Shown: positions 5,790 to 47,400 of the stretch, piece by piece
Layout: every line of letters starts with the position of its first letter
Numbering within the stretch: position 1 is the stretch's first letter
NCBI GenBank assembly: GCA_051294375.1
Contig: CM119267.1
Span: 13,631,326 to 13,695,325 of the forward strand
Length of the DNA stretch: 64,000 nt
DNA from: Paraspadella gotoi
Taxonomy: Eukaryota > Animalia > Chaetognatha
Reading direction: 5' to 3'
Position numbers and translations under genes: made by a program
Notes under the pieces: model-generated
Told to the model about the DNA's origin: nothing
The model's input: only the letters and a program-made list of their open reading frames with translations
Databases searched by the model: none

Positions 5790-8750
5790 CTAATGCTGCC
5801 TTTCATTTCTGTTGCGTGGCCTGTTATCTTCAACGACAATGGTGTGTGAAAGGAAATCGTAAAAAGCTCGACCATGCCTAAATAAAAACAACAAACAAAC
5901 AAGGATTATCATTGAGGTCAAAATTTCTTCGGAAAATATGTTTTATAATTATATTTAATAAACTATTTTAAAGTATACGTATTTCGGGGCTACCGAAAAA
6001 AAATTAAAAATTTCAATCGGTTCCCGACTCAATACAGACAATTATTTTATGCGAGATAATTTAATTATCGAGTACAAAAAGTATTTTGTTCGTATTATTT
6101 CAGGAACTGAAAAGCAAAATACTGTATATTTATAGTATTATCCTTATAAAATAGGAAATTTTCAAAATAATTTTTATAAATTTCTTATTAAAGATCCAGA
6201 TTTTTTATAAAAAGTCCAAAAATATAAAACATGTTATAACAATTTTATATGTTTACAGTGTTAAAATTGAAAAAAGTTAAAAAATTCGCCACCTTTTTNN
6301 NNNNNNNNATGAAGCAATATAGCTATATATTTTTCTTTTTTTCAATTCTTTCAAACAAAAACAACAAAAATATTTTAAATTAATATAAAAAAATTTATTG
6401 AATGATTCTGAATATGGATTTTCGAGTTAGGAAAAAAATTATGCAATTCTAAAAAAATCAGCCTCTCGCCTTTCGATTTTTTTCTAAAGGCTGATTTTTA
6501 AATTTTTTTGATATTTTGATTTTCTATGCAAAACCATTATTCTTAAGAATTTTCACCTTTTTTGACATTTTAAACGCTGAAGATAACATAATTTTTGATA
6601 ACATATTTTATATTTTTGATTCAACTATTTTATAAGAATATTACTACAAATATATTATATTTTACTATTCTGTTCCCGAGATAATATGAACAAAATATTT
6701 TTTGTATGATCGAACAAGGATATTTAGATGTGAGATAGTATGATTAAGTGCTCCACTCTAATGGCCATAGCATAATAAAGATAACATGTCCCAGTAAATA
6801 TTTTTAAATTGAGTTTTTAATTTGCTCTTTAAAATTTTCCTTTTAGCATATAAAGGTGCTTCCAGCACGTATATTGTTGGTTTTGGGCATGCTACAATTG
6901 TTGCTTACATTACCCTTATATATGGCTCTAATCGACTGGGCTTTTGTGCACGGTTTCCCGACCTAGAATACTAGTTATTCCTATTCTTAATAACCTACTT
7001 AATTATATAACAAACGACTAGGGAATGTTAACATATTTTAGTAGTGGTTTTAAGCTGAAATCCGAGGCGGATAAAATTCAACCAACATTGCCTTCTACTC
7101 GGTACCGTGGAGTATTGTTCAAGTATGAAAAAAATAAATCCTCTATGGTGGACTAGAATCCACCAACCGTTCATCAGCGGCCATTGGTGCCGGAGGCAAG
7201 TCATTCGCCTCCCAACCCAAAGGTCCGGGGTTTTAGCCCGGTAATCGCCTAGCAGTTAAGATGGACAGGGCGCTTAACCCGCCTGTAACACGGTGTTACA
7301 GCCTGATCCAAAGCTCAGAGATTGCTTATATTGAACGGTTCTGTCATTAACACATAACAATTATCACTGTCTCTTCACCTCTATCAGAGAGAGAAAACAT
7401 TAATGATTATTTTTATGTATTATAAAATAAAATTCAAAAATTTTTTATTATTGAAATCTAATGGAAAATTTTATTCTAAGTTTTGATTCATTACCCTGTA
7501 GAAATTATTATATGAGGAACTATTTTTATTATTTTTCGCAGCTTTAATATTAAAATATTATATAACATATTTTACAAGTTTCTCATTTTTTTCTGACGAA
7601 TACGAATCTGTTATTACAATTTTTAAAAAATAATTTTAAATTTTATAAATTTATGAGAATATTAATAATATTATTACTACAAAGAAAATAAAATTTGCGC
7701 TACTGTTATGCTAACAATTTTTTTTAAAAGGAACATTTTCTTTAATTACATGTACGGAGGCAGAAAAAAATATTGTTAACTCGCTTAATCTTTTCATAGC
7801 TCCACCCTACTATCTCAGAGAGGCACGGCGACCCTCTCCCCTCTTGGTCACTTCAATACGATACAATTATATACTTTTAAAATAATCAGCCAATCTTACC
7901 GGAAGACGAAAGATGTGGCACAAGCGGGAAATAAGAAAGCAATGAGTAGATTCTTCACGAAGGCGCGGAGAAAGGCTCTACTGAGATTGACGGGCAAGGC
8001 ACGAACAACAAGCACTCGAGAATCGTTTATCGGTTGCACACCGTCGCAAGATAAAACCCGGATATCAAGAGCGCGCTTGCCTGGAGTCGCCCCTGACTTG
8101 TAAATATAAAGAGTTTCGAAGGCGATGACGCAAATCCGATGGATGACCTCAAGAATCATAAGCTCGGTCGTCATGTCAAGCAGAGTCTCGAGACGCATGT
8201 CCTGGATGACGGCGTTGAGATCGTACTTATCGAGGTCAAGAAGTCCAAAACAATCGATAGTCATCACAGTAACTCCGATCTTAAGAATGAAAAGAAGCAC
8301 AAAGTCTATTGCTTCAGCAGCGAACCTCTTCCACAATGGCGGAATGCGGTGGGTCTGAAGCGGTGCCACGTTACGACCATTGGTAATCAATCCTGGTGTT
8401 TTGCATTTCAAAAATTTCAGAACAAATTTTACAAAATCTTCAATGAAATAATACTTACCCAAAAACCTAACATTTACAGGTTGGGCTTGATTAGAAAAGG
8501 AAGAAGTAGAGCCTTCAGCCGCAACGATGTTGGAAGAATTTTGAGGCGTCTGCTGTTGAAGAGAAGACATGATGTGCGAATGCCAATGCCAATAAAGCAC
8601 CCAGTGGTAATATTGCCAGGTCCAGAGAGATAATTCCTTGTTGTAGGCAGCCATTGAAATTTTTTTTTTTCCATCCCTCTTTTTCTTTTCTGATTCGTCT
8701 GTTTTATGAAGCAAAAAGTTTGTTTGGACACCCACCGTCATTTTGGACAT
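5790..8750 (-). CDS. FAM8A1: FAM8A1-like RDD-domain membrane protein; exons 8750-8459, 8392-7900, 5877-5790
   Basis: Motifs WTWQYYHW, IPPLWKRFAAEAIDF, GATPGK, RAFLRAFVKN. Donor CG|GTAAG at 7899 joins acceptor TAG|G at 5878 in phase, giving RHGRAFYDFLSHTIVVE...stop. A 66-nt GT-AG intron lies at 8393-8458. Start codon uncertain. Confidence 0.9.
7146..7377 (+). mobile_element. Solo LTR of TRIM family 1 (tRNA-like module + twister motif)
   Basis: TGGTGG...CTTCA termini, perfect 6-bp TSD cctcta (7140-7145 / 7378-7383); lies in a FAM8A1 intron, antisense. Confidence 0.85.
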
Positions 8751-8830
8751 TCCGAGAATCTGCTTGATTCAATTCAACAAATTAATTGGTAGACATTGTG
8801 TATAAACTATCAATTTCGTTGCGTTTTGAA

Positions 8831-9020
8831 TTTAGGAGAAAAACAAATTTGTTTTTAACAACGAATTTTATTATTGGTAATACATGTTTCGACTCTTGAG
8901 TTTTAGAGTCTTCATCAGTTATGTAACTGTAACTGATGAAGACTCTAAAACTCAAGAGTCGAAACATGTATTAAAAATAATAAAATTCGTTGTTAAAAAC
9001 AAATTTGTTTTTCTCCTAAA
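8831..9020. repeat. Near-perfect ~190-bp palindrome (Penelope-like terminal fold-back)
   Basis: Arms tttaggagaaaaac...ttcatcagtta / taactgatgaa...gtttttctcctaaa. Confidence 0.85.
8930..8973 (+). ncRNA. Minimal type I hammerhead ribozyme motif (mirror copy on minus strand ~8878-8921)
   Basis: taa-CTGATGA-a-gactct...agagtc-GAAAC-AT-GTA-tta; palindromic stem III ACATGT. Confidence 0.7.
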
Positions 9021-10689
9021 AACAAATTAATTCAAAATAAATACAGCTTCCAAGAAAAAAATAATCTTGATTCGTGATAACGTCAATATAAAAATCCACA
9101 TCAACAATTCAATATACTAAATATAAGAAATAATTGAAGGACGCTTTTCTAATCATTAAGAAATTAATACTTAAATCGTTTCGCTGATAAATTAAATTGA
9201 TTAAGTATTTTGCTAGGCGCAGCGTTTCACAAGGCAAATGAGTTCGATTACTTCTTCGGACGCATTGTCACCAGACATTTACATGTCAGATATGCCCAAT
9301 GAAGTTGCCGAATACGTAGTCGTAAAGCGCCTTTTTGTCTTCGTAAAGATCAATGGCTGACAAGCTCGACGGTGGAGAGACGGAAGTGGTAAAAAAACAG
9401 TTGATGACGGGGAACGTCTCGACGTGATATACACTAGGCAAGAAGCGGGGTTTCTAGAAAGGGGGATTGGTTAAAACCGGCTTGGGCGTCCGGAGGACAG
9501 TGATTGAAAAGACGGAAACTTGGCAATAAAGATTTAGGGTGCAATGAGTACATGCCCAACATCAAAAAAATTTAGAGAAGATATGAACCAGAATAAAGCA
9601 AGGCCATTATGATCACTCTTACAGTAGGAAAAACTCAATTCCTTTATTAGAGACGAGAGAAATAGTCAAAACCAAAAGTTTGACTAAGACGTACAGTCGC
9701 GTGGAAAAACGAATTCACGCTACCCTCTTACATATTTCCTCATTTTGTGACCAATATTCTTGCTCTGTCATATCACTAACATATGCGTTACGTTCGACCG
9801 AACATAGGCTTTTTTCACCATGACTGTTGATCATCAGCAAGATCGCATAGACAATCAAAATATGTAAAAAATCAGTCTGATTGTAGTTTGAAACAGTGAC
9901 AAAATTTCTTACCATCGTCATTGTAATTGAGCTGGGTTAAACTTGTTGATTAAAAAAAGATATATTAAAATTCAATTTGTTACTAGAGATCGAGAGCTAT
10001 CTTTTAAACCTTTCATTTATAATAAATTTAAGGAATAACAATCACCCAATTATATTAAAATCAGAACGACAAAACAATTTTGCTTTTTTCGAATTTTTGT
10101 TTTCATTTTGACAAAAAAATTTGTGGTGATTTGTTGGGAGCTTTAACAAAGATCCAGAAAGCATTTTTTGAAAACTTATATTCTTACAACTGTGTGTAAA
10201 TATAAAAAAAAATATTCAAATTTAGTATAGTAAAGTAACTATATTGAATAAAAAAGTTAAATATTTTTCATTTAAAAAAAACATTTAGTTTATGGAGAAT
10301 TAAAAAGAAAAAAATTGTGAAGCAATTTTGCATTTTGAAAAAAAAATAGATTTTTCCCATTCGATTTTGTCATTTTGTCATTTTTTGATATATTCAATTT
10401 TTATACAAAATTATAATTCTCAGTAAGCATGGTCCAAAAAATATTTTTTTAAATTTTTTATCTTTTTCTTTCTTTTATATTTTGATAATTAATTACTTTG
10501 AATGATACAGTAATGATTTTTTTGTTTAAAAAAATTACTACCTTTCTTTTTAGATTGATCTCATATCATTAATACAAATTTATTTTATCAATTAATGAAA
10601 GACAATAATAACAATATAATTCTGTACAGTATTAATAAAAAAAAACAGAAAGAGGAATAAGGATAATAATAAACAAAATCTTAAAAACA

Positions 10690-11580
10690 TAAGGATCGTC
10701 GCAATCGCATTACAAAAATATGGATTGACGACAAATTTTGATACTAAAAAAAAAAATTTCAAAAAAGAAAATTAATTTATAAACAAAGAAAAATGATATT
10801 TTGCGATTGTCAATTAAAAAAAATAATGAAGTACTGAGGAAAATTAAAGTTACAGTTTAAAAAAAAAAAAATAAAAAATAAAAAATAAAAAAGTCAGCAG
10901 ACGTAACCTCTGAGAAAAAAAAAACGAAATAAAAACCCGATGTTGCGATAGCAAAATGATAACATGCACCAATGCGATGCCTAATTTTACGAGTTCAATC
11001 CTAATTCCTTCTGCTGCGCCTTTTTGATTTCTTTTATTTTTTTCCCTCTCTCTGCGTTTTTATTTAAAAAAAAATTTTAATGAGGATTGAACTCGTAAAA
11101 TTAAGCATCGCACTCGTGCATGTTATCATTTTGCTATTGCAACATCGAGTTTTTATTTCGTTTTTTTTGTCAGGTGCTGCATCTGCTGATCAGTTTATTT
11201 TTTGACAATAAAATTTTTTTTTCAGTAACTTTAATTTTCCTCGGTACTTTATTATTTTTTTTAATTGACAATCAAAAAATAGAATTTTTCTTTGTTTATG
11301 AATTAATTTTCTTTTCTCCAATTTTTTTTCTCAGGGGCTGCATCTGCTGATCAGTTTATTTGACAATAAAAATTGACAATAACAAAAAAAACCTTTTTTT
11401 TAAAACTTTAATTTTCCTCGGTACTTTATTATTTTTTTTAATTGACAATCGCAAAATATAATTTTTCTTTGTATATAAATTTTTTTTTCTCAAATTGTAT
11501 TTTTTTTAGTATCAAAATTTGTCTGTCAATCCGGATTTTTCTTATGCGATTGCGACGATCTGTATGCTTTTAAGATTTTT
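10690..11580. repeat. Long imperfect inverted repeat (fold-back element)
   Basis: gatcgtcgcaatcgcat...ttttacgagttcaatcct is inverted as aggattgaactcgtaaaa...atgcgattgcgacgatc. Confidence 0.7.
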
Positions 11581-12157: not shown

Positions 12158-12394
12158 TGTGGAAGACGATGCCGCGAGCAGTTTACCGTCCGTTGCACAC
12201 AAGGTCCCGAACTTCGGATCGGGCTGTAGTCCGTCACTACAGGTGGGTTAGACGCCCCGTCCCGCTTTTACTTGTGTGAATCAGCAGGGCGCGAACCCGA
12301 GTCCTTTGGGTTGGGAGGAGCTCGTGCTACCTCCGGCGCCATAGGTGCTGCTGATTCTCGGACGAGTAGTGGGGTATGAAATACTACCACTACA
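12158..12394 (-). mobile_element. Solo LTR, related family 2 (tRNA-like module + intact twister motif)
   Basis: TG...CA ends, 4-bp TSD aatc on both sides; shares gccggagg, cctcccaacccaaagg, gggttc and gggacggggcg with family 1. Confidence 0.8.
12196..12278 (-). ncRNA. Putative type-P5 twister ribozyme (family 2)
   Basis: cacacaag-taaaa-gcgg-GA-CGG-ggcgtc-U^AA-ccc-ACC-[tgtagt gacgg actaca]-G-cccga-U-CCG-AA-GU-tcggg-ac-cttgtgtg. Predicted cleavage between 12250 and 12249. Confidence 0.8.
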
Positions 12395-18184: not shown

Positions 18185-21100
18185 TTAAAATGGATTGTTG
18201 GTGTTTCGTTGCAAGGCGGGAACCGGATCTTGGAATCCCCACGACTGCTGAGACGGGGCCGTCGTATTCGGAGGGTTCGAGGCACCAAAGGAGCCAAACT
18301 GATTGGCCGGCGACAGGACGGGGCTGTGAGAAGCCACAGGGGGAGCGGCCCCAAAAGGACCAAGACTGGCAGGTTGCAGCTGGGCGCCGTTGTCGAATGG
18401 ATTAAAATTAGACTGCAATGACAAAAATTGTATAACAAAAAATACGTACAATAAATCACTAGTCAAAAATTATGAAATCTACGATTCACCTGCGGTTGAC
18501 TGAAAATTCCAGAGACTGCTGGGGTGGGCGCAGCGAAGCTCAAATTAGGACTAGGACCCCCAGCGGCTGGAGCCCACCCGGAAGCTAGAGGGGCCGCTGT
18601 AGCCGCAGAGGATATTGGTCCCATAGGGCTCCAATCTGCACCTCCGGTACGCTTTGAAATGGGACTTCGATTGAAATCTCTTTTTGTAGTTGAAGCCCCT
18701 GTTCGGAAAAGATTAAAAAATTATAATTAGAAATTTTAAATTAAAGATTACAGAGAAAAGATGGCATAGCGACTCCCCCCCCTCTCCAAGACAGTGTTCC
18801 AATACCAGGTCCCGTTCCGTAGCTGCTAGAGGGGGTTAAAGAAGTTACGGATAGTCTTTTTCAGCTCCCTTAGCGCCTTATCCACTCTCCACAAAGCATT
18901 AATAAAAAGTAAGAAACAAATTTCTAATAGGACTTGCAATAAAAGCCATATAAGTCACAGAAAAATCGTGGGTCATCCAACTTCTGACCGAACTAATGAA
19001 CCGCTTTGAATTAATTATTGAAGAGACAGTAATTATTGTTGTGTTAGTGACAGAACCATTCAATATAAGCTTATTAAGCAATCCCTGAGCTTCGGCTCAG
19101 GCTGTAACACCGTGTTACAGGCGGGTTAAGCGACCCGTCCCTCTTAACTGCTAGGCGACCACCGGGCTAGAACCTCCGGCACCAATGGCCGCTGATGGTT
19201 GGTGGATTTTAGTCCACCATATTATATTATTATGAAATTGGTACAACCAATATATAATATATACAATAATATATATTAGACACTTTTTTGACTACCTTTG
19301 AAGCTACAGATCATAACTGACTACCATTCTATTTGTTTTTTTCTGCTCTATATATGAGACTTTTGATATACTTTTAAAAATTATTGGCTCTTCCCAGTAG
19401 CGTCAAAGTGCCACGAGCGTTAAAGTTCTAATTTTTTTCATTTTTATTAATTTTATTTGTTTCATTTTTAGTAGGGAAGTCTGGTGATTTTTTATTTTTA
19501 TTAAGAAAATTTCTGCCAGGCCTCGTAGACACAGCTAAATCTTATATTTACATTTGTAATAATTGGGACTAATAAATTTTGATATATTCTGTCTATAACT
19601 ACTCAATGTTGATCTTCAGTATCATAAATATTGACGAAAATATTTTTTTTTCAAATTAATTTATTTTAAATTTTTTTGTCAGATGAATTTTTTTCATTAA
19701 TTCAAATAAATATACAGCGGTCATGCACTGATTCCAATTCTGTTGGGTTTAGCCTATCTTTCAAGCACATAACGAAAAAAACTTGTCATAGTAAGAAATA
19801 AAAGCATTTATTCCAAATTTTTCCTCAAAATTTATCATCCTTTTTGTTTCTGACTGTTTTTGCCAAACATGCCCTTTAAAATTAGAAAAATAAAGATTAG
19901 CTAATGAAAGTCTCAGGTACATTTCGTTGCAGGAACAAAGAAAATTCATTGATATCATAGTCTCAATATGGAGCCTTGAAATACCTAATTTTCTTCGTAA
20001 TTTACACCTTGTATTATAATAAAAAATGAAAACAATAATTTAACCATACAGCTACATGCATTAGCGTGTTATTAAAAGATTGTAGTTGTTTTTTAATGAA
20101 TTTTTTTTATATTAATATAGCTAAAGGCATTATGCAATGGTTTTAATTTTCACCTGAAGATGACCACAATTTAAAAATCTGATAATACAGTGTTTTAGTC
20201 CTATGTTAATAGTTTTTAAATCAGGGGGAACAAAGTTTGAACTCATAAATTTTCATATTTAAATCATATGTTTTTTAGGTTGCTACATGATTTTTTACTT
20301 TTTTTTTTTTTCAACAGTAACGGAACATCTTGCTTTCAAGGCATATCGCGTCTATGCGCGTCTTCGTAGGTCAATTTTAAAAACAGATTTGGATTCCTCA
20401 AACGCATATTTACTAGTAACCTGACGACATCAAGTGACGGAAGTTTGGTTCTCTTATTATATCAAAATGGAAAATTAATTCTAATATTTTTAGTTAATAT
20501 CTATCGATTTCAATGAAAAAAAAGGCACTAGATATATTGCATGTGATTAAACAATGTTATCGCAATAATAATTTTATTAATTTTATATATTTTATAAGTA
20601 TTTTAAGTATTTTTATTCAGTGAGTAAAATAACTTTTTATTCGCTAATTTTTATCTCGGACGCTTATTTAATATAATGCCGTTTTCCAATAAAAAATGGC
20701 AGTAACTTCAAAAGTTCTTAATATATTTTGTATTTTGACAAACCGGAAGTGACGTCATTAACCCAAGTTGTAGTTCATTCAAATAGCGATGTCGCCGGCG
20801 ATTCACGCACGAGTCGCAGGTGTGGTTAATGACATCACTTCCAGTTTCTCTAAATACAAAATATAGTAAGAACTTTTGAAGTTATATAAATTTAAGTTTT
20901 GAAAACCTAAAATAATTTTTGATTATTTTGGAAGGCCAAGACGATGCAGTTCTACTTTTCGAAGAAAAACATGGTGCTGCTTTTTTGTGAAGATTCATCA
21001 GGGAACTTTTTCATTTGAATATTTATTATTTGATTGTGTTAATTTCCTTTCGTTTCGTTGTTTTTTGTAGATTTAGAGAAAAACAAAGTTTATTGGTTTA

Positions 21101-24100
21101 TTTTCAACAATTTTTATTTTTACATAGGGACATAGCTGATGAAGGCTTATACATAAAGCCGAAATGTAAAAATAAAAATCGTTGTAAATAAACAAACTTT
21201 GTTTTTCTCTAAATTATTATTTGATAAAACATTTTGTTATATATCTATTCTTTTTAATTAATTATTATTAATTGATCAATATTTATTATTCATTACTTTT
21301 CCTTTTCCGTTATCATGTGTTATTAATAAAGTCTGTGGTTCTTGATCATTGTTAAATTAAAATTAGGTTGCAAAGGAGTTTGTATCTGCATAAACAATAC
21401 CTATTACCCTATAAATACATAAAAATAATTTAAATAGGATCTTTTAAGATATTGAAGAGACAGTGATAATTGATAAAAAAGTTGTTTTTAAATGGAAAAA
21501 CAGAAAAAAACCCGTTTTTTCCCCAAATATAGAAGCCCAGGTTAATTCCCCCCCCCACGCCTGGGAGCTCGATCAGGCTGTAACACGTGTTACAGGCGGG
21601 TTAAGCGCCCCGTCCCTCTTAACTGCCAGACGACCACCGGGCTAGAACCCCGGACCTTTGGATTGGGAGGCGAATGACTTGCCTCCGGCACCAATTGCCG
21701 CTGATGAACGGTTGGTGGATTTTAGTCCACCATACATCCCCCCTCCCGTAGGGAGAAGTCTGTTGCGTCTCTTCAGTGAATTGTTGTTGGGTGAAAGTTC
21801 GTCACCAAGTTGAGGCATGTCGCCTGATGTGTTGTGGGCGGAAAGTGCATCGCCAGGTTGAGGCATGTTGCCTGAAAGTGTTGTTGTTGCTGTTGTGTTC
21901 GGAAGTCGGGTTCACTGGCAATGAAGTCGCCTGAGCTTCGGATCAGGCTGTAACACCGTGTTACAGGCGGTTTAAGCGCCCCGTCCCTCTTAACTGCCAG
22001 ACGACCACCGGGCTAGAACCCCGGACCTTTGGGTTGGGAGGCGAATGACTTGCCTCCGGCACCAATGGCCGCTGATGGAACGGTTGGTGGATTTTAGTCC
22101 ACCATAATATTTTTGAAAAAAAAAGTCTTTTGATAACTTACGATTTGTAAAATTATGTTTTCCACTTATGCATGCAGACATAAAAATATCTTTTTAATAT
22201 AAAAACTCACTGACAATACAAAATTCTAGCAAGAAATGAACTGATTACATTAAAACAAGTTTGAGCAAACAATGCCGGATCTGCCCACGATCATTAGCGG
22301 TAATTAATTAATACAAACTATATAAACTAAAACAATAATTTAAATAATAAATTAATTTGATCCAAAATGTTTGTTTTTAGGTCTTTTCGACACTGACCAC
22401 GACAAAAGCAACGACAACGATGATGGCGATGACGACAATAATGCCGATAAAGATTGACTTGATTAAATAATTAATTTATTGATTAATTAACCGATTAATT
22501 ATTTGATTAATTAATAAATCTTATCTTGCATTTACATTTAATAGAAAAAAAAGAAGCATAATCAATTAGTGAAACAGGTTTTTTATTTTTTCCATTTAAA
22601 CTCATTTCCACTCAGACGATTTCATCGAAACTTGATTTCCAGCTTAATCACACACTTTCCTACCACATTCAAAATTTAAAGTCAATTGTAAGTAATTGTA
22701 ATTGGCGTTCAAATAGTGAAATATATTTTTTTTGTTTTTTCCATTTAAACTCATTTTCACTCGCACGATTCCATTAAAACTTTATATCCAACCCAATCAC
22801 ACACTTCTCTACCCACACACAAAATTTCATTCCAATCAATCCATCCAATCACGAGTAATTGGAGTTTTTTGCTAAGGTGGGACAGACAGACGGACATCGT
22901 TTTTTTGCATAATTTATCATAATTCGATATTCTGACATTATATATGTTAATGCCTGACAAGATTGAGGGGGCGGACCGACGGACCGACAAAGTGAATTAT
23001 AAAGTCGGGATCTGCTGAAAGACTAAAAATTAAATCTAACAAGAACTTGATCAAGAAACTACAGATATATTTTAATTTTGGCGCTCGTGGCGCTTTAGCG
23101 CTTCTGGGAAGGGCCAAAAATTTTAAAAAGTCAAATAAAAATAACTAGTTAGATAGAACAGAAAAGAATGCAGTCCAGAGTCCACTTATGATTTTTATCT
23201 GTAAGATAATCGTATTTAAATGTGTCTAATATATATACAATATCATATGGTCGTTATTGTTCAATGATAATTGTTCAAACTGGTTATCTGGTTACAGTCA
23301 AGAATCAGAAACGAGATGACCATAAACCCTGTGTCACAGGAAATCCATCAGCAAACCGAAAAGATTTCTTCGAAATCTAAATAACATATGATACACAATA
23401 CAAAATTTACCGGGGTTGATCTTTAAATTTCCTGCTAAATTTTTGAGGGAATCTTCAAGATTGTTTCCTTTAATGAGCTTTTCCGTCTTGATTTCATTGT
23501 TGTTGGGATTTTCAATAAAAGGATTTCCAACTGAGGAAGCGTTTGAGGCGGTACTGCCAACTGGAGCTGGTTGTAGTATTTCGCCAAAAGGGTCAAATGG
23601 CGCGCTCTACGAATAATATCAATAAGGAAATAATATGTTTAAAAAATCTTAAAGTATAAAAAAAAAAAGATTGATGCGAAATGAATTAATAGTAATAGTA
23701 ATTGATTATTGATGCGATGTTAACCAAATATTGATGCGATGTTAAACAAATATTGATGCTATGATAACCAAATAATAATAATAATAAATATATTATATTT
23801 TTTAAATTATATAATTTATATTTTGATTATATTTAATATTTATTATATATTATAATATATAATATATTTAAATAATAAAAAATATATTTATATAATTCAA
23901 ATTATTTTTAAAAATATTAAAATAATAAGCAAAACTTTTTTTATTTCTTGATCACATCCTTACTATTTGGTAATTTAACTGAATTATATTTAGCATTCTC
24001 ATTAAGGTGATTTTAGTTAAAACTCAGATTATGATTAGGGTTAAGGTTGAGGTAGATTAGGGTTAGATTAGGGTCGTGTTAGTTTGGTTTAGGGTCGAGT

Positions 24101-27100
24101 TGGTTTGCTTTAGTGTTGAATTAGTAGTAATTAGAATTAGGGTTGAATAGTTTGGGGTTAGGGTTAAGGTTCAGTAGTTTAGGGTTACGGTTAGGGTTAA
24201 TGTCTATTTTAAGGTTAAGATAAACAGTAAGCCGGCATTAGGGTTAGGGAAGGTACTGGCAATAGACATTAGGGATTAAAGTTGAGGTACGGAAATATAA
24301 GGGAGGCCCGGTCCCGGGTTAAGGATTGGGTTGGGAGACATGGAGTTAAACGGGAGGCCCGGGTTATGGTTGGGGGAGAGGCCCGCTGTTGAAGCATTCA
24401 AGGCGATTAGGGTTAGGGTTGAGGCACTGAAATATATGGGAAGCCCAGGCCCGGGTTAGAGTTGGGAGAGAGGCACGGAGTTGAACGGGAGGCCCGGTTT
24501 AGGGGAGAAGCCCATTGTTGATGTATCAAGGNNNNNNNNNNTGGGTTGAGGAATGGAGATATACTGGAGGCCAGGGCCTGGGTTAGGGTTGGGGGAGAGG
24601 AATGGAGTTGAATAGGAGGCCCTGGTAAGGGTTAGGAAAGCCCACGGTTGGCGCGTCGAAGGTGGTTAGGATTGAGGCATAGAAATGTATGGGAGACCTA
24701 GGCCCGGGTTAGGGTTGGGGGAAAGGCATGGAGATGTACGGGAGACCTGGGTTAGTGTTTAGTCTGGAGGGAAGGGCTCACAGGTGATGTATTTTTTAAG
24801 GCGGGCCAAAATTGAACACTTTTCATAACTTTTAATTCTCTCAAATAAATTCTTTTTTTCCTTCTATTACTAAATCGATTTTCAATACAACTTTTTGAAT
24901 TAGTTTATTGGGTTGTTGCACTGAAGCTTTTAAATATTTATTAATATGAAATTGGTACAACCAATATAAAAATTATCCATTCATTTAATAAATAAGCTAT
25001 CTTGCCCCTGACTTTGGACAGGCTTTGGTGGTTTAAGGCCTCCATCACTCTTACAAGATAATGACATAGCAGGTCGTATTTATCCTCATGTCTCAACTTC
25101 AGCCGCGAGCTTTTCCTTTAACTTGCGCCTTTCATTATATTCATTACTTTTATTACTGGCGAGGTCACCAGTGAGGGTACGGGTGACACCACCAGGGCTT
25201 TGGCAATATCGCCATAATAAAGTCGCTAACCAACTAGAACCAACAAACAATTGTGGCTCATACGTGAATCGCCGACGATATTGCTATTTGAATGAACTAT
25301 AAGCTAGGGTTTGGTTTGAAGTTCAGAAATAAACAAAAAGGGTTAAAATACAAGGGTTAAGGTTCCAGCTTGGCATGAGATAAGAGCTCCGGCCAGATAA
25401 AAATTCTGGCTGCGGCTCCGGCAAAAAAGCTCGGCTCCCGCGGCTCCAGCTCCACATCCCTAATGAGAAGCCTAATCTAAATTTTTAGCTACCTATGGTT
25501 ACACAGGAGCTATTTTCAATGTTAAAACCGTGACGACGATAACAAAGCAATACTAAATGGTTATCTACGCCCAAGATGGGCCTTAACTTAAGGCTTAAGC
25601 CCGTCTGGCGAGATAAAAACAAAATAAAGGGCAGAGCTTTGTCATTGTGTCCCACTTAGAAATTTTCTAATTAGTGAGATTCTCTGCTCTAACAGAAAAC
25701 GTTTGGAATAGCGAAATACCGGCATACAGTCGCGCAGAAACTTATTTAGATTTCAAATACATAAACACGTAAAGTTTTCGATTCTGGCCTTTACTTAGTA
25801 CATAAAATTACCACCTAATGGCTTTTTATACCTGAGGATTGACGGTGGACATTTGAGCTCCAATTGGAAAGGCGTTATTAAACTGAGCATCAGAGGCAAA
25901 TAGGTTTGATGAGGCCGCGGTAGCCACTGCAGGAACAACCCAAAAGCAATTAAACAAAAATCTCTCTCACTCTGACGCCTAAAAATAACCTGACAAATCC
26001 TGACCATTCTGAGGCCCAAAAAGATTGGCAGAGGGCTCAGGTGTCGTGCCAAAGGAGCTCTGTCCCGCAGAGCCGAAAGGGTTGTTTCCGGCCGGGGCGA
26101 CGCTCGATGACGTTGATATTAGTGCGAACAGGTCGTCGCTGGGCTTTGCCGTAGTCGCCGCCACAGCATTAGAGGAATCTAGAATAAATCACATGCGTGG
26201 TAAAAGTAAAATTCGAACAAAGATGTACGAACAGCATACCCGTTGATATGTCGATGCAAGTGCCGTTCTGAGAGACGCCGATTGCGGGAGACGTTGTCGC
26301 TGAATCGCGTCCCGAAGTATCGAACGCCGGACTTTCGATGGTTAATAAATCCAAAGCAGAGGACGTTAGTCGCGAATCGGCCTCGGCCTTTTAAAGGGGG
26401 TAGAGTAATTGAATAACAGAATGTTGTTAGCATGTCCGCAATAAATGGGGCTTCCAAAAATGCTCTTTCGCGAAACGATTAAGTGGGAGAAATACAAAGG
26501 TTTTCAAGAAATTGAATTTTCCATTAAAATTGTATATTTAATTTTTTTAAAAATTACCTTTAACGCCTCCATCCTGGCAGCCTCTTCAGCTATTAGTCTC
26601 TTCTTTTCCGCCTCAGAAATATTGATCACCGGTGTAGTAGAACCGCTCCCGCCAGCACCACTGCCAACAGTTTCTCCTGCAATGTGATAAGTACTAAGAA
26701 ATCTTTCCCTTGAATTTCAAGTTGAAATCAAACTTTCAATGTGTTACAATAAATTAGAATTTGTTACGAAAAAAAAAACATGATGGCAAGGAAGTTTTAT
26801 GGCTTATTTTTACATTCGCCGACCGGGATTTTGCGGTCTGTTATTTGTTTTTTCGCTTCTTATGAGCGACATATAGAAATCTCGCTACTCAAAAATAAAA
26901 AAAGGATACTGGTAAGGGTAGAAAAACTTTTTATTACAAATCCCTAACCACCCCTAAGCCTAACCACCCCTAATCCCTAACCAACCTTAACCCAATTGCT
27001 AACCGTTTAAAAAAACATAATATAAAAATATTGTTTTTCCTTTCCTTTCTTTTCCTCATTTGTTTACGTACAAGGAGTTTTATTAAGAAACAAATTTCAT

Positions 27101-30100: not shown

Positions 30101-33100
30101 CGTCAAACGTAAAACGTTAATATTTTTTATCGTTTGTTTAGTCGCGACTATTTTTTTTCTTGGGGCAACTCAAAATTTCGGTATAAAAATGCAAGGTTGG
30201 AAAGAATATGCAACCTTTACTGAAAACAACTCAACCGAAGATATGACTATCGTTGTTCGGCCCCAACGCCGAGCACTCGAGACACAGCTATTCACTTTGG
30301 ACCAACAAGACGAACGGAAAAAACGCGTAAACGAGATTTGCGACCTGTACGATTTAAGAGGTTCTGCGTTGGAGTTGGATAACTCAGACTTGAAACAGAT
30401 TATTGTTGATGACAAAAACGAAATACTCTATTGCTACATTCCCAAGGTAACCAAGTCCAAAAAATTTAGGGTGGACCAAAATCTACAAACCGTTCATCAG
30501 CGGCCATTGGTGCAGGAGACAAGTTATTCGCCTCCAAACCCAAAGGTCCGGGGTTATAGCCCAGTGGTCGCCTAGCAGTTAAGAGGGACGGGGCGCTTAA
30601 CTGGCCTGTAACATGGTGTTACAGCCTGATCCGCAGCTCAGGAACTTCTTATATTGAACTTTTCTATTAGTATCACTAACTTATAATAATTGGGAGAGAC
30701 AGAATAATTGTTATATCCCATTATTAGTAAGTACAACTAATTTAAGAATCTCGTCTCGACAGTCATAAAATTATTAGTCAGAATTTTTTGTTTAAGTAAT
30801 AAAAGTAAAAGGAAATAGCAGCCAATTAATTTAAAACTTATTCCCTGCAGGTCGCCTGTACCAATTGGAAAAGAATCATGATGATTCTTACTGGCGCGGC
30901 TAAAGGCGAAACTAACCCTCTCGAAATTCAGGCATCGGACTCACACATAAAGAGCGGGTTTAAAACTCTTAATCAATATACAGACGCCGAAATTGTATTC
31001 AAAGTTAAAAACTACCTAAAATTTATGTTCGTGAGGCATCCATTTGAACGTCTCCTTTCCGCCTACAAAAACAAATTCAGTGAGCGCTACTCGGTGTATT
31101 TCCAGAAGAAGTTCGGCCGAAAGATTATTCGACGCTACCGGCCAGATGCCAAAACTGAGTCAATCGTATTCGGAAATGATGTAACGTTTCGAGAATTCGT
31201 CACCTACGTTCTCGACCCACGCACCCACGTCGAGGGGCTGAATGAACATTGGCGTCAGTATTATAAACTTTGTCATCCATGTCATATTGGTTATGACGTA
31301 ATCGGAAAATACGAAACCCTATACAGCGATGCCAAACTCGTATTGGATCGTGCCGGCATTGGTGACCGAGTGACATTTCCTACCTACTCGCCAGTGGTTG
31401 CTCAAAAACTCAAAACAATTGACTACATACGAGATTTTTATGCAACGATTCCAGAACAGGATTTGAAAGACTTGAAAGCTACTTATGGCTTGGACTTCGA
31501 ATTTTTCGGATATAAATATCCGTTTTTGAATGATTCCTCTCCACAATAGAAAATAAACAAAAATACGAAAAAAACAAACAAAAAACACAGCTTTAAATGG
31601 TTGAGCGTCTTGAAAAAATAATTCATGAATCTGAGTATCGACTAAAAATAATTAATCCATAGAATAGTTGTTAGTGACATTACGAAAAAAAAGTCTTCTC
31701 TCATAAATAATGTTTTGTTTTGATCTCTAAAACTTATCTCGCCTACACTTGTACACTTATATTTATGACCATTAAACCACACTATCTCAATTAATCGCAT
31801 GCAAACTTCACACGGCTGTAGTATAAACTTACTAGAATGCATTAGCTTTTAATTTTTTTTTTTGTCGCTCATAAAAATTAAATTATGATCACGTTAAAAA
31901 GTTATTAAAAAAACTAAAGACAAATTAAAATAAAATTAAGACGCCGAAACTCGCTGTCATGCATAATCTAAAGTAAAAAGTTTGAGCAAACAATGTCGGA
32001 TCTACCCACGATCATTATCTGTAATTAATTAATTTATTTAAGTTAATTTAATTAATTAGGCAATTAATTAATTAATTTGATCCGAAATGTTTGTTGATTA
32101 AATTGATGATTAATTAATTATTGATTAAATTTCATTCCAATCCATCCATCCAATCACGAGTAATTGGTGTTTTTTGCAAAGGTGGCGGACGGACGGACGG
32201 ACACTCTTTTTTTTGCATAATTTTTTCATAATTGATGGTTCTGATATGAAAATAAGTGAATGCCCGACAAGATTAAGGGGGCGGACCGACGGACCGACAA
32301 AGTGAATTATAGAGTGCAATGTGTAAGCACCGACACGGCTTCGAATCTCCCGCCACAACATTAAAAAAAATAAATTCTTAAAACAAGTTTGATGCACAAC
32401 AATGTCGGTAATCTGCTCTAGCGATAATTAAGCGNNNNNNNNNNNNNNNNNNNNNNNNNNNNNNNNNNNNNNNNNNNNNNNNNNNNNNNNNNNNNNNNNN
32501 NNNNNNNNNNNNNNNNNNNNNNNNNNNNNNNNNNNNNNNNNNNNNNNNNNNNNNNNNNNNNNNNNNNNNNNNNNNNNNNNNNNNNNNNNNNNNNNNNNNN
32601 NNNNNNNNNNNNNNNNNNNTAATCAGCTAATCAGATGATAAATCACAATATTTTAAAAACAAATTTTTTAATCGCATCATTTTTTCAAACTTGCATCATT
32701 TTTTCAAACTTGCATCATTTTTTCAAACTTGCATCATTTTTTCAAACTTGCATCATTTTTTCAAACTTGCATCATTTTTTCAAACTTGCATCATTTTTTC
32801 AAACTTGCATCATTTTTTCAAACTTGCATCATTTTTTCAAACTTGCATCATTTTTCACATTAATTAATTAAAACATAAGTATTAAGTAATCATAAATAAT
32901 AAAGATTCAAGTAAATGTGACTTGTTTTTTCCATTTAAACTCATTTCCACTGGCACGATTCCGTCAAAACTTTATATCTAGCTTCTTCACACACTTTCCT
33001 ACCCACACACAAAATTTCATTACAATCCAACCACCCAATCACGAGTTATTGGAGCTTTTTGCTAAGGTGGGACGGACAGACAGACGGATATTTGTTTGCA

Positions 33101-35451: not shown

Positions 35452-38400
35452 AAGAGAAAGCAAAAAGTTTCCAACACAGAGATAGTGGTTTAAAGAATGA
35501 GTAGTTGAGTACAGTTTAAGTTGAGGACAGATCACCAATTGACCATTTCACTTCTTTTCACAACTGATCAGTCCTCAACTTAAACTGTACTCATTCTTTA
35601 AACCACTATCTCTGTGTTGGAAACTTTTTGCCCTCTCTCTCTCTCTCTCTCTCCCTTCTTTTGCACAAATTTGTAAATGTTTTATTAACGCTGATGAAGG
35701 CTCGAAATAAAAGAGTCGAAACATGTCCGTACACAAATAAAATCGTTGATGAACTTATTTTCAAACTTTGCTTAAATTTTCAAATACCAAAATGTTGTTA
35801 ATGCTGCATTAACTGCTCAGTTTAAGACCTTGAAAGCGATTTACATGTATTGGCGCAGCCACTGGTCCCTGTTCTAATTAAAATGTGACGGGACTGGTTT
35901 AAACACGCTAGTGGCAGGAGGCACGAGGCAGTTACGCAGCCCATTCGCCAGTTCAACGTCGGATTCCCCGGGTGACGGGCATCACAGGCAATATCACTAT
36001 TGCCAGAGTACAATATTAAAAATGGAATTACGATCGACTAGAGATATAAGAAAATTAGAAAAACTCAATACTCCAAGAGTATTATGACATTTTTATATAA
36101 TACCGTACCTCAAATTACGCGATTAAAAAAAGAATTTTGAATCAGTTTAAAGGTTACCAAAACAGGTTCTGAACAGCCGAGACAAAATTCTACACACTTA
36201 ATCTTTGTAACTGTAAAAACCTGAATTAGGAGCCGGCGTGGTCCTCCCGCATTTTTTTCCACCTTTTTCATCCATGGAGTTGTAATGCTGTTCCAAGGCC
36301 TCAAGAAGTGAACTGGGGGCTTTAGCTAGGTCGGGTATGCCACCTTTGTCGATTCCCACTTGTTCTGCAACCTAATGCGGTTAAAATATTATAGTCATGA
36401 AAGAAACCATATTATACAAAATATTTAGATATTGGTGCTTTATACAAACTCGGTAAAAAAACACCACAGAAGCGTTTCANNNNNNNNNNNNNNNNNNNNN
36501 NNNNAGAAAAGATTTTACAGAGACGATTATATCAATTGTTATCTCTCTTAACGAATGGAATCACGATTCATCACATAGAGATATAAGAAAATTTATAGCA
36601 AACAACTTCCAAAGATACTCCATGACAAGTTTATTGAAACATAAACTCAATTACTCGAGATCACTCTCAATTTATGGCAAATTATTATATACACAGAATT
36701 TGAATCAGTTTAAACGATTCCAAAAACAGGTTCTGAACAAGACCACAGAGAAGCAAAATTTCTTACACACTACACTCATTTGTAAGCTGTAAACTCACCG
36801 TGAATTAGGTAGGCCGGCGTGGAGCATCCAATATTTTACTTTTTCATCCATGGAGTTGTAATGCTGTTCGCAAGGCCTCAAGAAGTGAAACTGGGGGCTT
36901 TAGCTAGGTTCGGGTATGCCACCTTTTTGTCGATTCCCACTGTTGTTCTGCAACCTAATGCGGTTAAAATATTATAGTCATGAAATGCATATTATACAAA
37001 TATTAGGTTATTGTGCTTTATCAAAAACTCGGTAAAAACACTACAGAAGGCTTCATATTATAAAATGAGGTACCCCTTTTTGGTGACCAGAATCTGTTCC
37101 CACCAAACTACCCGATCGAATTTAATGAAATTTTACATTTAGAGTTCTATTCTATGCATGGTTCATCCTTTTCTTTCAATTTTCTCAAATTCTTCCAAAT
37201 CTGACTGGTACAGCTGATGTTCATGAAACTCAAAATTAAGGTAAACTAATATTTTTGAGGTAATAAATACATTTCTGTGGAAGAGTAAACGTTTATGCGT
37301 CTGTTCAAAATAAAAATACTGAAAAAATTTGAAAACAATTTTTTCCCCCCTCGCCTCGATAATTCTATTTGTATTCACATAGGGATCGTTCATACCAAAT
37401 TCCAATAAATTTGGTCCAGTAGTTTTCTCGGAACGGTCACAAAAAAGGGGTACCTCATTTTATAATACAGGGGTGGGACCATATATCCAAACAAAATTTA
37501 AAAAATCATTACTCTAAAACCCATAATGATTTTTAAAATCAGAATAAATATTTGTATAATAATCACTCTTTACTTTTAGATGAAATCTTAATCTTTTTAA
37601 ATTTCTTTGATATTATGCTTTTTTGATGCAGCAAAGGCAACTGCTCGGTTTTCTCCGCGCGGTTTTGAAAAAAAATGTATGAAAACTTATTGTTTAATCT
37701 CATTCCAAGACACAAAAGTTAAAAATAGTTTTGGAAATACTTATTATAGTATAATAATGTTTCTGGCAAGGTGTACGTTGTACTTTTTTTGGTTTAGTTT
37801 GATATTTTTATTCATGAAAATTATTATTATGGCTTAATTTTTATTAAAATTTATTTTTATTTTTATTGCCAGATAATTAAGTTAATCATGTAAGATTTCT
37901 GAATACAATAAAAGGGTCAAAATGATAAGAAATATATTAAGTATTTAACTATATAAGCATATTTGTTAAAATCTTTCACTAAAATTTATCTTAACTGAGG
38001 CGGAAAAAAAATGTTTAATTTGAATAGATGATGAAAGCTTAAAAATCAAAGGTCAATTGAAAGATAACATAAACACTGGTCAATGTTCAGAAATACAACC
38101 ACTGAAAAATATTAAAAAGTATGGCTTTATCATATGCAATACAATGTGCGCGAAATAAAAAACGACTGTTTGATAACGCCCCTGCAAAAAATTTATTTCC
38201 TTCATTTTATATAGTAAAAAGCGACTTTATCAACTCAATTTAATTATTGCATCTCAAATCATTCGGACAGGCAGGAGGTTAAGTGTTGTCTCGATAATAG
38301 CGTCCCACCCCTGTATGAAACCTTCTTAGTACTTTTTAAAATAGTAACAATCTTCCCAAAATAAAAATTCGTGAAAAAACGTTTCTAGAGGAATTTTTTT

Positions 38401-44400: not shown

Positions 44401-47400
44401 TGTAAAATCGGGTTTCATATTTTCAAACTCACTTTTTTTAGATTTAATTTTTCTTCTTACTTTCAGTAGTTTCCTGAAGAAATTTAAATAAATAATAATT
44501 TTTTATCTTCTGAAAGCCCTTTCAAATCTAAAGAGAATGACATAACTTGCAAATACTCGTAGGTATCAAATTAAACCGGCCCAGCTTTATTATATTAAGA
44601 TACCCAAAAACAAGACAGTCATTTCCAAAAATAATAAGCTGGAGGTAATTTAAGATTTTATAATATTGGATTGGCTTCTAAAATCCCTTTTTTCAGCCTT
44701 TAATATACTTTAAAAAATATAATATTTTATTTTAAATAATTTAATAGTAATATTTTAAAAAGATTTGAAATTTTAGATTATTCAATTTATTGACTCTCTT
44801 ATTGAACAAGGTGGGGCACTTTATTTTTATTTTATAGCTGAAGAACAGTAATTATTGATAAGTGTTATGACAGAACGTTCAATAATAAGCGTCCTAGCTT
44901 TCGGATAGGCTTAACACATGTTAAGGCGGGTTAAGCGCCCCGTCCTCTTAACTGCCGACGACCACGGGCTAAACCCCGTACCTTGGGTTGGGAGGCGAAT
45001 GACTTGCCTCCGCACAATGGCCGTGATGACGGTTTGTGGATTTTAGTCACTATACATCCCCTCCCGAGGAAGATGTCTGTTGTGTCTCTTCAGTGATTGT
45101 TGTTTTGGTGGAATGTTCGTCACAAGTTGAAGGCATGTCGCCTATGTGTGTGGGCGGAAAGTGCATCGCCAGGTTGAGGCATGTCGCCATGAAAGTGTTG
45201 TGTTTGCTGTTGTGTTCGGAAGTCGGCTCACCAATGAAGAGACAGTAATTATGATAAGTGTTAATGACAGGACCGTTCAATATAACATCCCTGAGCTTCG
45301 GATCAGCTGTAACACCATGTACAGGCGGGTTTAAGCCCCCTCCTCTTAACTGCCAGACGACCACCGGGCTAGAACCCGGACATTTGGTTTGGGAGCGAAA
45401 TGCTTGCTCCGGCACAATGGCCGCTGATAACGGTTAGTGGATTTAGTCATATAGAGTTTCGTTAATATCTCTCTCTTTATTTTTTAAAGGGCTTTTTGAG
45501 ATATGATATTTAATATCTTTAATAAATAACTTGTTTTAAAAAAAGCTAAAAGTTAAAAAAAAAAAGAATTTAAAAAAGTGAGTTGGAAAATGAAAACCGA
45601 TTTACAAGCAACTTTCTCACTCATTCCAAGGCATATTTAACTGATCAATATAAATTTGAACACATAAATGATTTAATATGTTCTACTACTAATTTTTAAA
45701 TCAATAAATAAACATGGTTTGCAAATGACAGCGTTTTTCTAACCGCGCTTGTTAAAATTGTCACCATGTATAGCGGTAGCCGACCAATCAAATTTAATGG
45801 AACAGCTTAATAATACATTATTGGTATTAATTATTGTATTAAATATTTTTTTGCAAAAATTTCCGAACCATGATATTCGCTAATTAATAATTATTATATT
45901 GCTATATAATTCAAAAAATTTTTGGGATATTTAAGTTTTTTAATCATTCTGATAGAGCTTAAAAGTAAGAAAAAATATAATTACAATTTTTTAAATTTGA
46001 GTTTTATTACTAAAAATTATAAAAACTCTAAATCATCGGATGATGATTATTTTAAAGGTTTTCCCATTTTTACCAATTATCATCAAAATATTGAAAAAGA
46101 ATTATACTTTGTGTGGACAACTTTTTAAGCTATCCTAATCTGCTTTTAAAATACAAATAAAATATTAATTACTATGCTATAGCCATTTTAGAAAATTTTG
46201 GTCCATTGAAAATTTCTCAAAATGTATTAGTTTCATTTGAAGTTTCCCAAATAACTTCTGACACCCATAACAAGTTTGCTCTAATAGTACATATATAAAT
46301 ATACCTACTGCAAATTGAAAACATAAAATTAATTTTTTTTACAATTAATGTTCATGATGGTATGTGTTCATAATGACATAGATTTTTTATGTACTTTCAC
46401 TACGCTTTAGTGGGTAGGAAAGTGTGTAATTGAGCTGGAAATCTAGTTTCGCTGGAATCGTCCGATTAAAATTAGTTGAAATGGAAAAAAAAAAAAAGTT
46501 TATTTACTATTTAAACGCAATTACATTGTACTCATGATTGATTAAAATTTAGTATGTGGGAAAATAGTGTCATGAGCAGAAATAAAGTTTCGATGGAATC
46601 GTCCAAGTAAAATGAGTTAAAATGGAAAAAAATTAACAATCAGTTATCACTATTTGATTATGCTTTTTTTATTTTATATTAAATGGAAATTCAGCTGCAT
46701 CATTATATTAACAAATAAAGTAATAATTATTTGTTAATTAATTAATTAATTTTGTGATCGAGATTGTTGTTTTGTGATTGAGAGGAGAGACAAGTGGAAA
46801 CGATTTTGACACGAATAAAAAACTAATTAATTATCTGATCAGCTGTTATCGCAGATTCCGGATGTTTTCTCAACTTGTTATAAAATAGATTAATATTGTG
46901 GTTCATATTACGAACCCACAAAAAATGAGCCACGAAACGAGCAAATGGGGGAAAATAGCATNNNNNNNNNNNNNNNNNNNNNNNNNGTTTTCAGTGATTG
47001 GTTGTTGTTAGCGTGAGTGCGTCCCTCGCTTGGGCATGTTGCCTTGCTGTGTTGTGAGCCGGACAGTGCTCGCGGTTGGGCACTTGTGGTGTTGTTGTTT
47101 GGCTGCTTCGTGTTTGAGTGGGCTCTGAGGACCGTTATTGTTATATGTTAGTGCACCTGTTCATATGCCAGTCTCGCTTTAGCATCGGCTGTCCCGGTGT
47201 TTACCAGGCGGCGTTAAGCGCCTCGTCTCCTCACCTGCCCAGGCCCCCGGGCTGCACCGGACCCTTTGGGCTGGGAGCGCATGACCTTGCCTGCGGCACA
47301 CCTGGCCGTGCATGCACGGTTGGTTTTTTTAGTCCCTCATACACCGCTTAAATTCAGCTTTGTCAGACAGGTACTGCCATACTTCTTACGCATTTTTGAA

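Follow-up and report, generated by a model that had tools for sequence, protein, structure and literature searches.

Does this stretch of the Paraspadella gotoi genome (64,000 nucleotides, hereafter the window) carry an LTR retrozyme, a kind of element so far described from plants? A first-pass annotation had proposed at two places in it a miniature LTR element with a twister ribozyme in each LTR, replicating through a circular RNA and a borrowed Gypsy-type reverse transcriptase. We examined the window and compared the 7k solo LTR and the 21k unit (copies are named by position in kb) with public contig sets only, namely four runs from up to four studies.

Anatomy and termini of the element

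BLAST found eight LTR copies of a main family and one divergent copy in the window. The best-described unit, read in its own sense, is followed here by the other copies:

22107..22110: 4-bp target-site duplication (TSD) ATAT, upstream side (sequence; ATAT is also the majority flank in three runs)
21922..22106, minus strand: 5' LTR, TA...CA, with ~50 bp missing after the ribozyme (the stretch was recovered from contig loose ends before 21930)
22000..22072, minus strand: tRNA-like cassette, LTR nt 35–107, predicted Pol III promoter (relaxed ARAGORN)
21930..21998, minus strand: twister motif (type P5) within the 5' LTR, cleavage predicted at 21974 (U6)/21973 (A7), with an A·G mismatch in P2 and the 3' strand of P5 absent (motif parse)
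21905..21920, minus strand: tRNA-Trp primer-binding site (PBS) with a 3-nt insertion (contig junctions; Fig. S2 of PMC10886601)
21735..21921, minus strand: non-coding internal region, 184 bp in the family (contigs)
~21733/21737..21747, minus strand: polypurine tract (PPT), then TG, then the TA of the LTR (pattern search)
21453..21734, minus strand: 3' LTR, with a tRNA-like cassette at 21629–21701 and a twister motif whose 5' half is intact (predicted cut 21603/21602), L4 and the next ~100 bp being scrambled (relaxed ARAGORN, motif parse)
21449..21452: 4-bp TSD ATAT, downstream side (sequence)
44839..45452, minus strand: second two-LTR copy, predicted cut sites 45333 and 44933 (BLAST, motif parse)
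7144..7377, plus strand: solo LTR, 234 bp, TSD CCTC, twister degenerate at 7262, 7267 and 7310
19019..19221, minus strand: solo LTR, TSD ATAA, tRNA-like part shortened by a deletion, mutations in the hexamer and at U24
30468..30710, plus strand: solo LTR, 3' end rearranged, twister core broken
46990..47345, minus strand: very noisy copy that ends at a gap, with an LTR and some of the internal region
12158..12394, minus strand: divergent solo LTR, 237 bp, TG...CA, TSD GATT, box A/box B, U6 at 12250, every part of the twister motif intact

The units at 21453–22106 (654 bp) and 44839–45452 (614 bp) are, as had been claimed, non-coding two-LTR elements, and both lie on the minus strand; their longest Met-initiated open reading frames (ORFs) span 74 and 57 aa, respectively. 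Both are damaged. The 5' LTR of the 21k copy lacks ~50 bp, a scrambled stretch in its 3' LTR destroys loop L4, and only ~165 bp are common to both LTRs (97% alike). The LTRs of the 45k copy are 81% alike, with 14 gap openings and many single-base gaps. Solo LTRs, also part of the earlier account, were recovered at 7144, 19019 and 30468. The last lies in sense orientation within an intron (30448–30850) of the sulfotransferase gene, a single case in which decay and selection are indistinguishable. The window's ORFs include RDD, ANTH and Sulfotransfer_2 domains, and the nearest Atlas clusters are commonest in Chordata or Arthropoda; together with the sulfotransferase intron, this points to a eukaryote and most likely an animal. 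None of 10 window ORFs carries a retroelement domain. Long inverted repeats at 8825–9026, 10744–11334 and 35479–35612 are probably MITEs and gave spurious microRNA matches.

The LTR boundaries were read from the loose ends of contigs in three runs. Among the matches listed, the 5' boundary was marked at 7144 by 28, 135 and 82 contigs (with a further 19 and 21 ending at 7143) and at 21734 by 29, 110 and 141 contigs, and the 3' boundary at 7377 by 34, 131 and 85 contigs. These ends shift the 5' boundary two bases outward, and the LTR is therefore 234 bp long and reads TA...CA in the main family; the TG...CA termini given earlier do not stand. A 6-bp TSD had also been suggested, which is perfect only at 7k, whereas a 4-bp TSD is perfect in four of the five copies with both ends: three of four in the main family (CCTC, ATAA and ATAT; 45k is noisy) and GATT in the divergent 12k copy. 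Insertion flanks are biased toward ATAT. An empty-site joint skipping 238 bp at the 7k solo LTR was found in three runs; we dropped it as an arbiter of TSD length, as it is compatible with both TSD models.

The PPT abutting the 3' LTR was confirmed as the sole match in the window at two or fewer mismatches (shuffle mean 0.01). The main family reads PPT, then TG, then the TA of the LTR, and the 12k subfamily LTR starts with TG; we infer that a two-base spacer was lost in the main family and that processing removes the TG. At the other end, contigs of all four runs contain the junction from 21915 into the LTR end, reading CTTCA-T-TGGTGAACCCGAC. The PBS at this junction matches the tRNA-Trp complement at 12 of 13 positions (Fig. 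S2 of PMC10886601), in line with the resemblance noted earlier. In the 45k copy, a segment that lies before the PPT (45082–45099; minus strand) can base-pair with the LTR 3' end and PBS (45229–45245) at −18.5 kcal/mol, and this predicted pairing may explain the single PBS mismatch to tRNA-Trp. A separate Trp-PBS-like 13-mer (25158–25170, minus strand; two mismatches) sits in a hairpin upstream of the 25k twister described below and is not above chance.

The internal region is 184 bp long in the family and holds a 48-nt imperfect duplication. It was seen in all four runs, in three of them at ~0.1–0.25 of LTR depth, depth not being copy number. One low-depth contig in a second coded organism (run X10) carries the internal region, PBS and LTR end, and may be a relative or contamination. 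Adding LTR and internal region (234 + 184) gives a cut-to-cut unit of ~418 nt. The spacings of 371 and 400 nt measured earlier are correct for the 21k and 45k copies, but both copies are damaged and neither gives the normal unit.

A twister motif with a self-complementary linker

In the sense of the element, the motif runs P5, P2', GA(C/U)GG, a six-nt linker, UAA, P2, the T2 strand, P3, P4, UCC(G/A)AAG(C/U), P4' and P5', which is the order of the type-P5 permutation of twister (Rfam consensus, RF02684). Nucleotides are numbered as in the rice twister, with an inferred three-pair register for T1. The type-P5 core (UAA, catalytic G, T1, T2, P4/L4 and P5) is present in the 12k copy and in the family majority, and P3, P4 and P5 all appear in the minimum-energy fold of the 12k copy.

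Three lineages carry the motif. Two are LTR lineages, the main family and the 12k subfamily, and the third is a non-LTR repeat (25005–25051 and 39940–39986). Between lineages, compensatory changes were observed in T1 (C-G/U-A), T2 (G-C/A-U), P2, P3 and P4. Across an alignment of six related sequences, with the structure drawn from one of them, 84.7% of 157 cells were paired and 11 of 31 pairs had changed on both sides; none of 500 shuffles did as well, a count that is not a probability, and slid structures reached at most three such pairs. The P5 columns are poorly aligned (51.5%); the closing P5 helix forms in each lineage, with a different sequence each time. In the rice twister, Watson-Crick swaps in T1 and T2 pairs keep activity (PMC5113685).

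An earlier loose descriptor was uninformative (three matches versus a shuffle mean of 3.3), and a stricter one was used instead. Its only three matches in the window are the 12k, 25k and 39k copies; shuffles gave a mean of 0.21, and one of 100 reached three. For two regions, the 12k solo LTR among them, none of 2000 local shuffles per region matched, and there was no match in 495,822 unrelated bases from 68 unrelated loci. None of the eight main-family LTR copies in the window passed, and among those parsed the site of the break differs from copy to copy. Majority letters, taken from contigs at least 85% alike only, repair the core defects of the 7k copy: in three runs G is found at 7262 in 98%–99.7% of depth, at 7267 in 94%–99.7% and at 7310 in 73%–94%, restoring the pairs. 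By the tally for run X5, no more than two G>A sites can have gone unseen in the whole stretch. Since the majority letters restore the core pairs lost at 7k, the spreading form appears to be intact. The claim of a twister in each LTR thus holds for the family majority and for the 12k solo LTR, but for none of the eight main-family copies as they stand in the window.

Rfam returned no twister match at the LTR copies in window and local scans, and no hammerhead match in the window; the non-LTR relative scored 25.8 bits, under the cut-off of 37.6. The twister core had no match in viral contigs and 19 in metagenome contigs, none with P4/L4 or BLAST similarity. P2 is bulged, its 5' strand being one nucleotide shorter than in Rfam and Schistosoma twisters, and no regular 4-bp P2 forms. 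A P1 stem of two or more pairs is absent, with the six-nt linker in its place, and in the main family an alternative hairpin over the cut site is possible. The motif shares UAA, the catalytic G and A, T1, T2, P4/L4 and P5 with RF02684 and with the Schistosoma T-variants in Perere-3, and its P3 resembles the Schistosoma P3 (PMC8501958). It differs from them in having no intramolecular P1, a bulged P2, a flipped first T1 pair and a score under the Rfam cut-off, and it lies in an LTR rather than at a LINE 5' end (PMC8501958). Judged on sequence and predicted pairing, the assignment as a type-P5 twister motif with both pseudoknots and P2–P5 holds.

The linker was missed by the first-pass annotation, as was the tRNA-like cassette discussed below. 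It is six nucleotides long and self-complementary in all three lineages, with a central CG/GC swap; the palindrome is broken in one window copy (19k). A random hexamer is self-complementary with a chance of 0.04, and the lineages share ancestry. Predicted self-duplexes of the hexamer have energies of −8.3, −6.3 and −9.1 kcal/mol in the three lineages, and intramolecular hairpins of the linker +4.6, +2.6 and +4.6 kcal/mol. Similarly, in the type I hammerheads of amphibian non-LTR retrozymes and of Penelope-like elements, the helix beside the cut site is replaced by one pair and a palindromic tetraloop (PMC7229834, PMC7761336), and the axolotl hammerhead of this form cleaves efficiently only as a dimer (PMC7229834). 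Those ribozymes are of a different class, and their repeats have no LTR, PBS or PPT. As the self-complementary hexamer stands in for P1, a dimer-acting "double twister" is predicted, in which the two LTR copies would swap strands and cut as a pair; we consider this modeled arrangement about evenly balanced between right and wrong. A strand-swapped pair would cut both LTRs, with the product ends held by P2, P5 and T1. A circle with a single twister copy would re-cut slowly and hence be stable, and dimer gating would spare most solo-LTR transcripts. Some twisters cut, inefficiently, without P1 (PMC8501958 among the sources), so dimer dependence is not required.

The non-LTR repeat (25005–25051 on the minus strand, 39940–39986 on the plus strand) combines an intact P5-type twister and a palindromic linker with an ~100-nt AT-rich tail. 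Its 5' ends are variable and it bears no LTR marks; decayed copies lie at ~49407 and ~63616 (plus strand), and 19219–19273 holds the tail only. The frame upstream of the repeat had no clear protein match. The repeat may be the tail of a Penelope-like (Naiad) element and the source of the LTR ribozyme. A hammerhead-core-like motif at 21136–21164 (plus strand), 290 bp from the element, has an extra base and no stem I and is perhaps a decayed Penelope-like end.

A tRNA-like cassette and the link to Helenus

Within LTR nt 35–107, box A and box B are separated by 44 nt, and there is an acceptor-like stem of 7 bp. Relaxed ARAGORN called a pseudo-tRNA at the same place in all six main-family copies tested, with an overlapping call at 12k. 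Against shuffles, the 30k copy was the clearest (0 of 1000, the best of several), and the others reached 40–124 of 1000 (21k 5' LTR, 40 of 1000). Default ARAGORN and Rfam missed a tRNA in the LTR copies. The sense strand has no TTTT stop, which is within chance (1172 of 2000 shuffles likewise lack TTTT). We predict from these sequence features that the cassette is a Pol III promoter. An origin from 5S rRNA, as in Cassandra and Ajax, was considered for its resemblance and rejected, as there is no Rfam 5S match and tRNA geometry fits better.

Taken together, size, PBS, TSD and tRNA-like cassette fit Helenus (TRIMp3), a group of putatively Pol III-transcribed TRIMs that are <1 kb long, carry box A/box B in the LTR and a PBS to a tRNA 3' end and, in animal families, make a 4-bp TSD (PMC10886601). 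Two of them, Helenus-2_SyJa and Helenus-2_SyUm, also share the Trp PBS, and their PPT and LTR start resemble those of the element (PMC10886601 supplement). Helenus differs in that ribozymes appear in the accessible text of PMC10886601 only in a reference title, and in that the main family here starts with TA, as one published Helenus LTR does too (PMC10886601). A motif search of the accessible supplement of that paper, where line breaks can hide matches, returned no twister loop in context.

Read by eye, Helenus-2_SyJa-LTR and Helenus-2_SyUm-LTR each have a type III hammerhead directly behind the tRNA-like part. It comprises a 6-bp stem III, a 7-bp stem I, CUGAUGA, a 4-bp stem II and GAAA, with 12 bp of loop-loop complementarity. 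The accessible parts of PMC10886601 do not mention these hammerheads, and the two wasp families are probably insect LTR retrozymes. The occupation of one slot by two ribozyme classes argues that cleavage matters.

A candidate animal LTR retrozyme

The observations establish the anatomy, the high copy number, the marks of mobility and the conserved motif, and 4-bp duplications and solo LTRs in the window are the products of integration and recombination. With moderate confidence, we interpret the family as an animal LTR retrozyme that would make a ~418-nt circle and borrow the reverse transcriptase and integrase of a Gypsy element, probably of CsRn1 type. The first-pass proposal is supported in its anatomy and, through the PBS and 4-bp TSD, in a putative Gypsy partner, but not in its termini, TSD or unit size.

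Under this interpretation, transcription by Pol III would begin from the tRNA-like cassette in the 5' LTR, and in both LTRs the twister would cleave behind LTR nt 132 (U6/A7). The double-cut RNA of ~418 nt needs a circle because no terminal repeat is left; RtcB ligation would close it, and reverse transcription would proceed round the circle, which would stand in for the first strand transfer. tRNA-Trp would prime the Gypsy enzyme, integration would leave the 4-bp, ATAT-biased duplication, and recombination would leave solo LTRs. A tRNA-Trp PBS and a 4-bp TSD define the CsRn1 lineage of Ty3/Gypsy (PMC3630058), whose members differ from the element in being autonomous; from these two features, a CsRn1-type element is the likely helper. 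The window and viral contigs contained no autonomous element sharing the PBS, PPT and ends; the PBS pattern occurred at 49 loci in viral contigs, none similar to the element and two with downstream repeats. Run X8, a guessed RNA run, has an internal-to-LTR depth ratio like that of DNA run X5; contig depth being unable to show level, ends or circles, this speaks neither for nor against the reading. Joints that go back 371 nt were rejected as a sign of circles; they are also found in DNA runs and reflect the direct repeat.

In the main rival, which we consider possible but unlikely, an active twister would trim just one end of a linear RNA, followed by ordinary two-jump reverse transcription with no circle. 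A Pol III transcript cut in the 3' LTR would begin at nt 35 of the 5' LTR, end at nt 132 of the 3' LTR and carry a 98-nt terminal repeat, and a cut in the 5' LTR alone would free the element from read-through RNA. End trimming is the role shown for Perere-3 twisters (PMC8501958), and it suits the missing T-run terminator behind the tRNA-like part, where many Helenus LTRs have one (PMC10886601). The predicted circle also folds only modestly: two cut-to-cut units from damaged natural copies, folded as circles, were 56% and 50% paired (z −2.4 and −0.66), and unit RNAs of hammerhead retrozymes are >70% self-paired. However, the motif is the same in the two LTRs, with no sign of anything that would silence just one, and a self-complementary P1 region better fits paired, simultaneous cutting.

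A plain Helenus-type TRIM, in which the twister is an inactive passenger from another retroelement such as a Penelope-like tail, seems to us distinctly improbable. It would accommodate the broken state of every main-family copy in the window, the deviations of P1 and P2 from consensus and the presence in the window of a non-LTR repeat whose twister is of that subtype too, and eight of nine tested hammerhead dimer elements did not cleave (preprint, 2026). Yet the two diverged LTR subfamilies keep all core pairs by compensatory changes while neighboring sequence drifted, the family majority is intact, and an unrelated ribozyme class occupies the same slot in wasp Helenus. A tRNA-headed SINE or assembly artifact with coincidental LTR features, as the indel-rich 21k, 45k and 47k copies and the excess of solo over two-LTR units might suggest, is already largely refuted by sharp ends, 4-bp TSDs, the absence of an A-tail, a PBS and PPT at the expected junctions and identical junctions in contigs of runs from four studies, and it is very improbable indeed.

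The preferred reading, an animal LTR retrozyme, has its closest parallel in plant LTR retrozymes (Cervera et al. 2016, PMC4918200), which are likewise non-coding, with a ribozyme motif in register in both LTRs, a PBS, a PPT, a 4-bp TSD, solo LTRs and dependence on Gypsy (predicted here). The element differs from them in its animal host, in having a twister and not a type III hammerhead, in using tRNA-Trp and not tRNA-Met, in LTR length (234 versus 300–400 bp) and unit size (~418 versus ~700 nt), in its tRNA-like cassette and in that its circles are predicted (PMC4918200). It likely acts like an LTR retrozyme and is best filed as a Helenus-type TRIM, strict membership among retrozymes failing on the ribozyme class. 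Accessible text of PMC7761336, PMC7229834, PMC4918200, PMC6765202, PMC9695139 and preprint 2026.07.22.740005 places LTR retrozymes, with their hammerheads, in plants and describes the retrozymes of animals as LTR-less. In agreement with the earlier remark that no example was known, a twister-bearing LTR element, an animal LTR retrozyme or a dimeric twister was not found in the largely open-access literature searched. PMC7761336 mentions unpublished insect type III hammerhead elements and twisters in RTE elements, and part of the finding may therefore be known to that group.

We tentatively extend this to a broader picture, which we hold to be doubtful as a whole: animals would have their own LTR retrozymes, Trp-primed and Pol III-driven TRIMs with an interchangeable ribozyme behind the promoter (a twister here, a hammerhead in Synergus wasps), here a natural double twister active only when LTR copies pair by their palindrome, which would cut the two-LTR precursor but not host RNAs with a solo LTR, and a stable circle replacing R-mediated strand transfer. 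That a hammerhead was overlooked in published wasp Helenus suggests further elements of this kind in repeat libraries. If the retrozyme reading is true, the LTR-retrozyme life cycle extends to animals through a different ribozyme class and a promoter of its own, and twister gains a role in LTR retrotransposition and a natural dimer-gated form. A 420-nt RNA would then allow a test of whether a circle made by a ribozyme can stand in for the first strand transfer.
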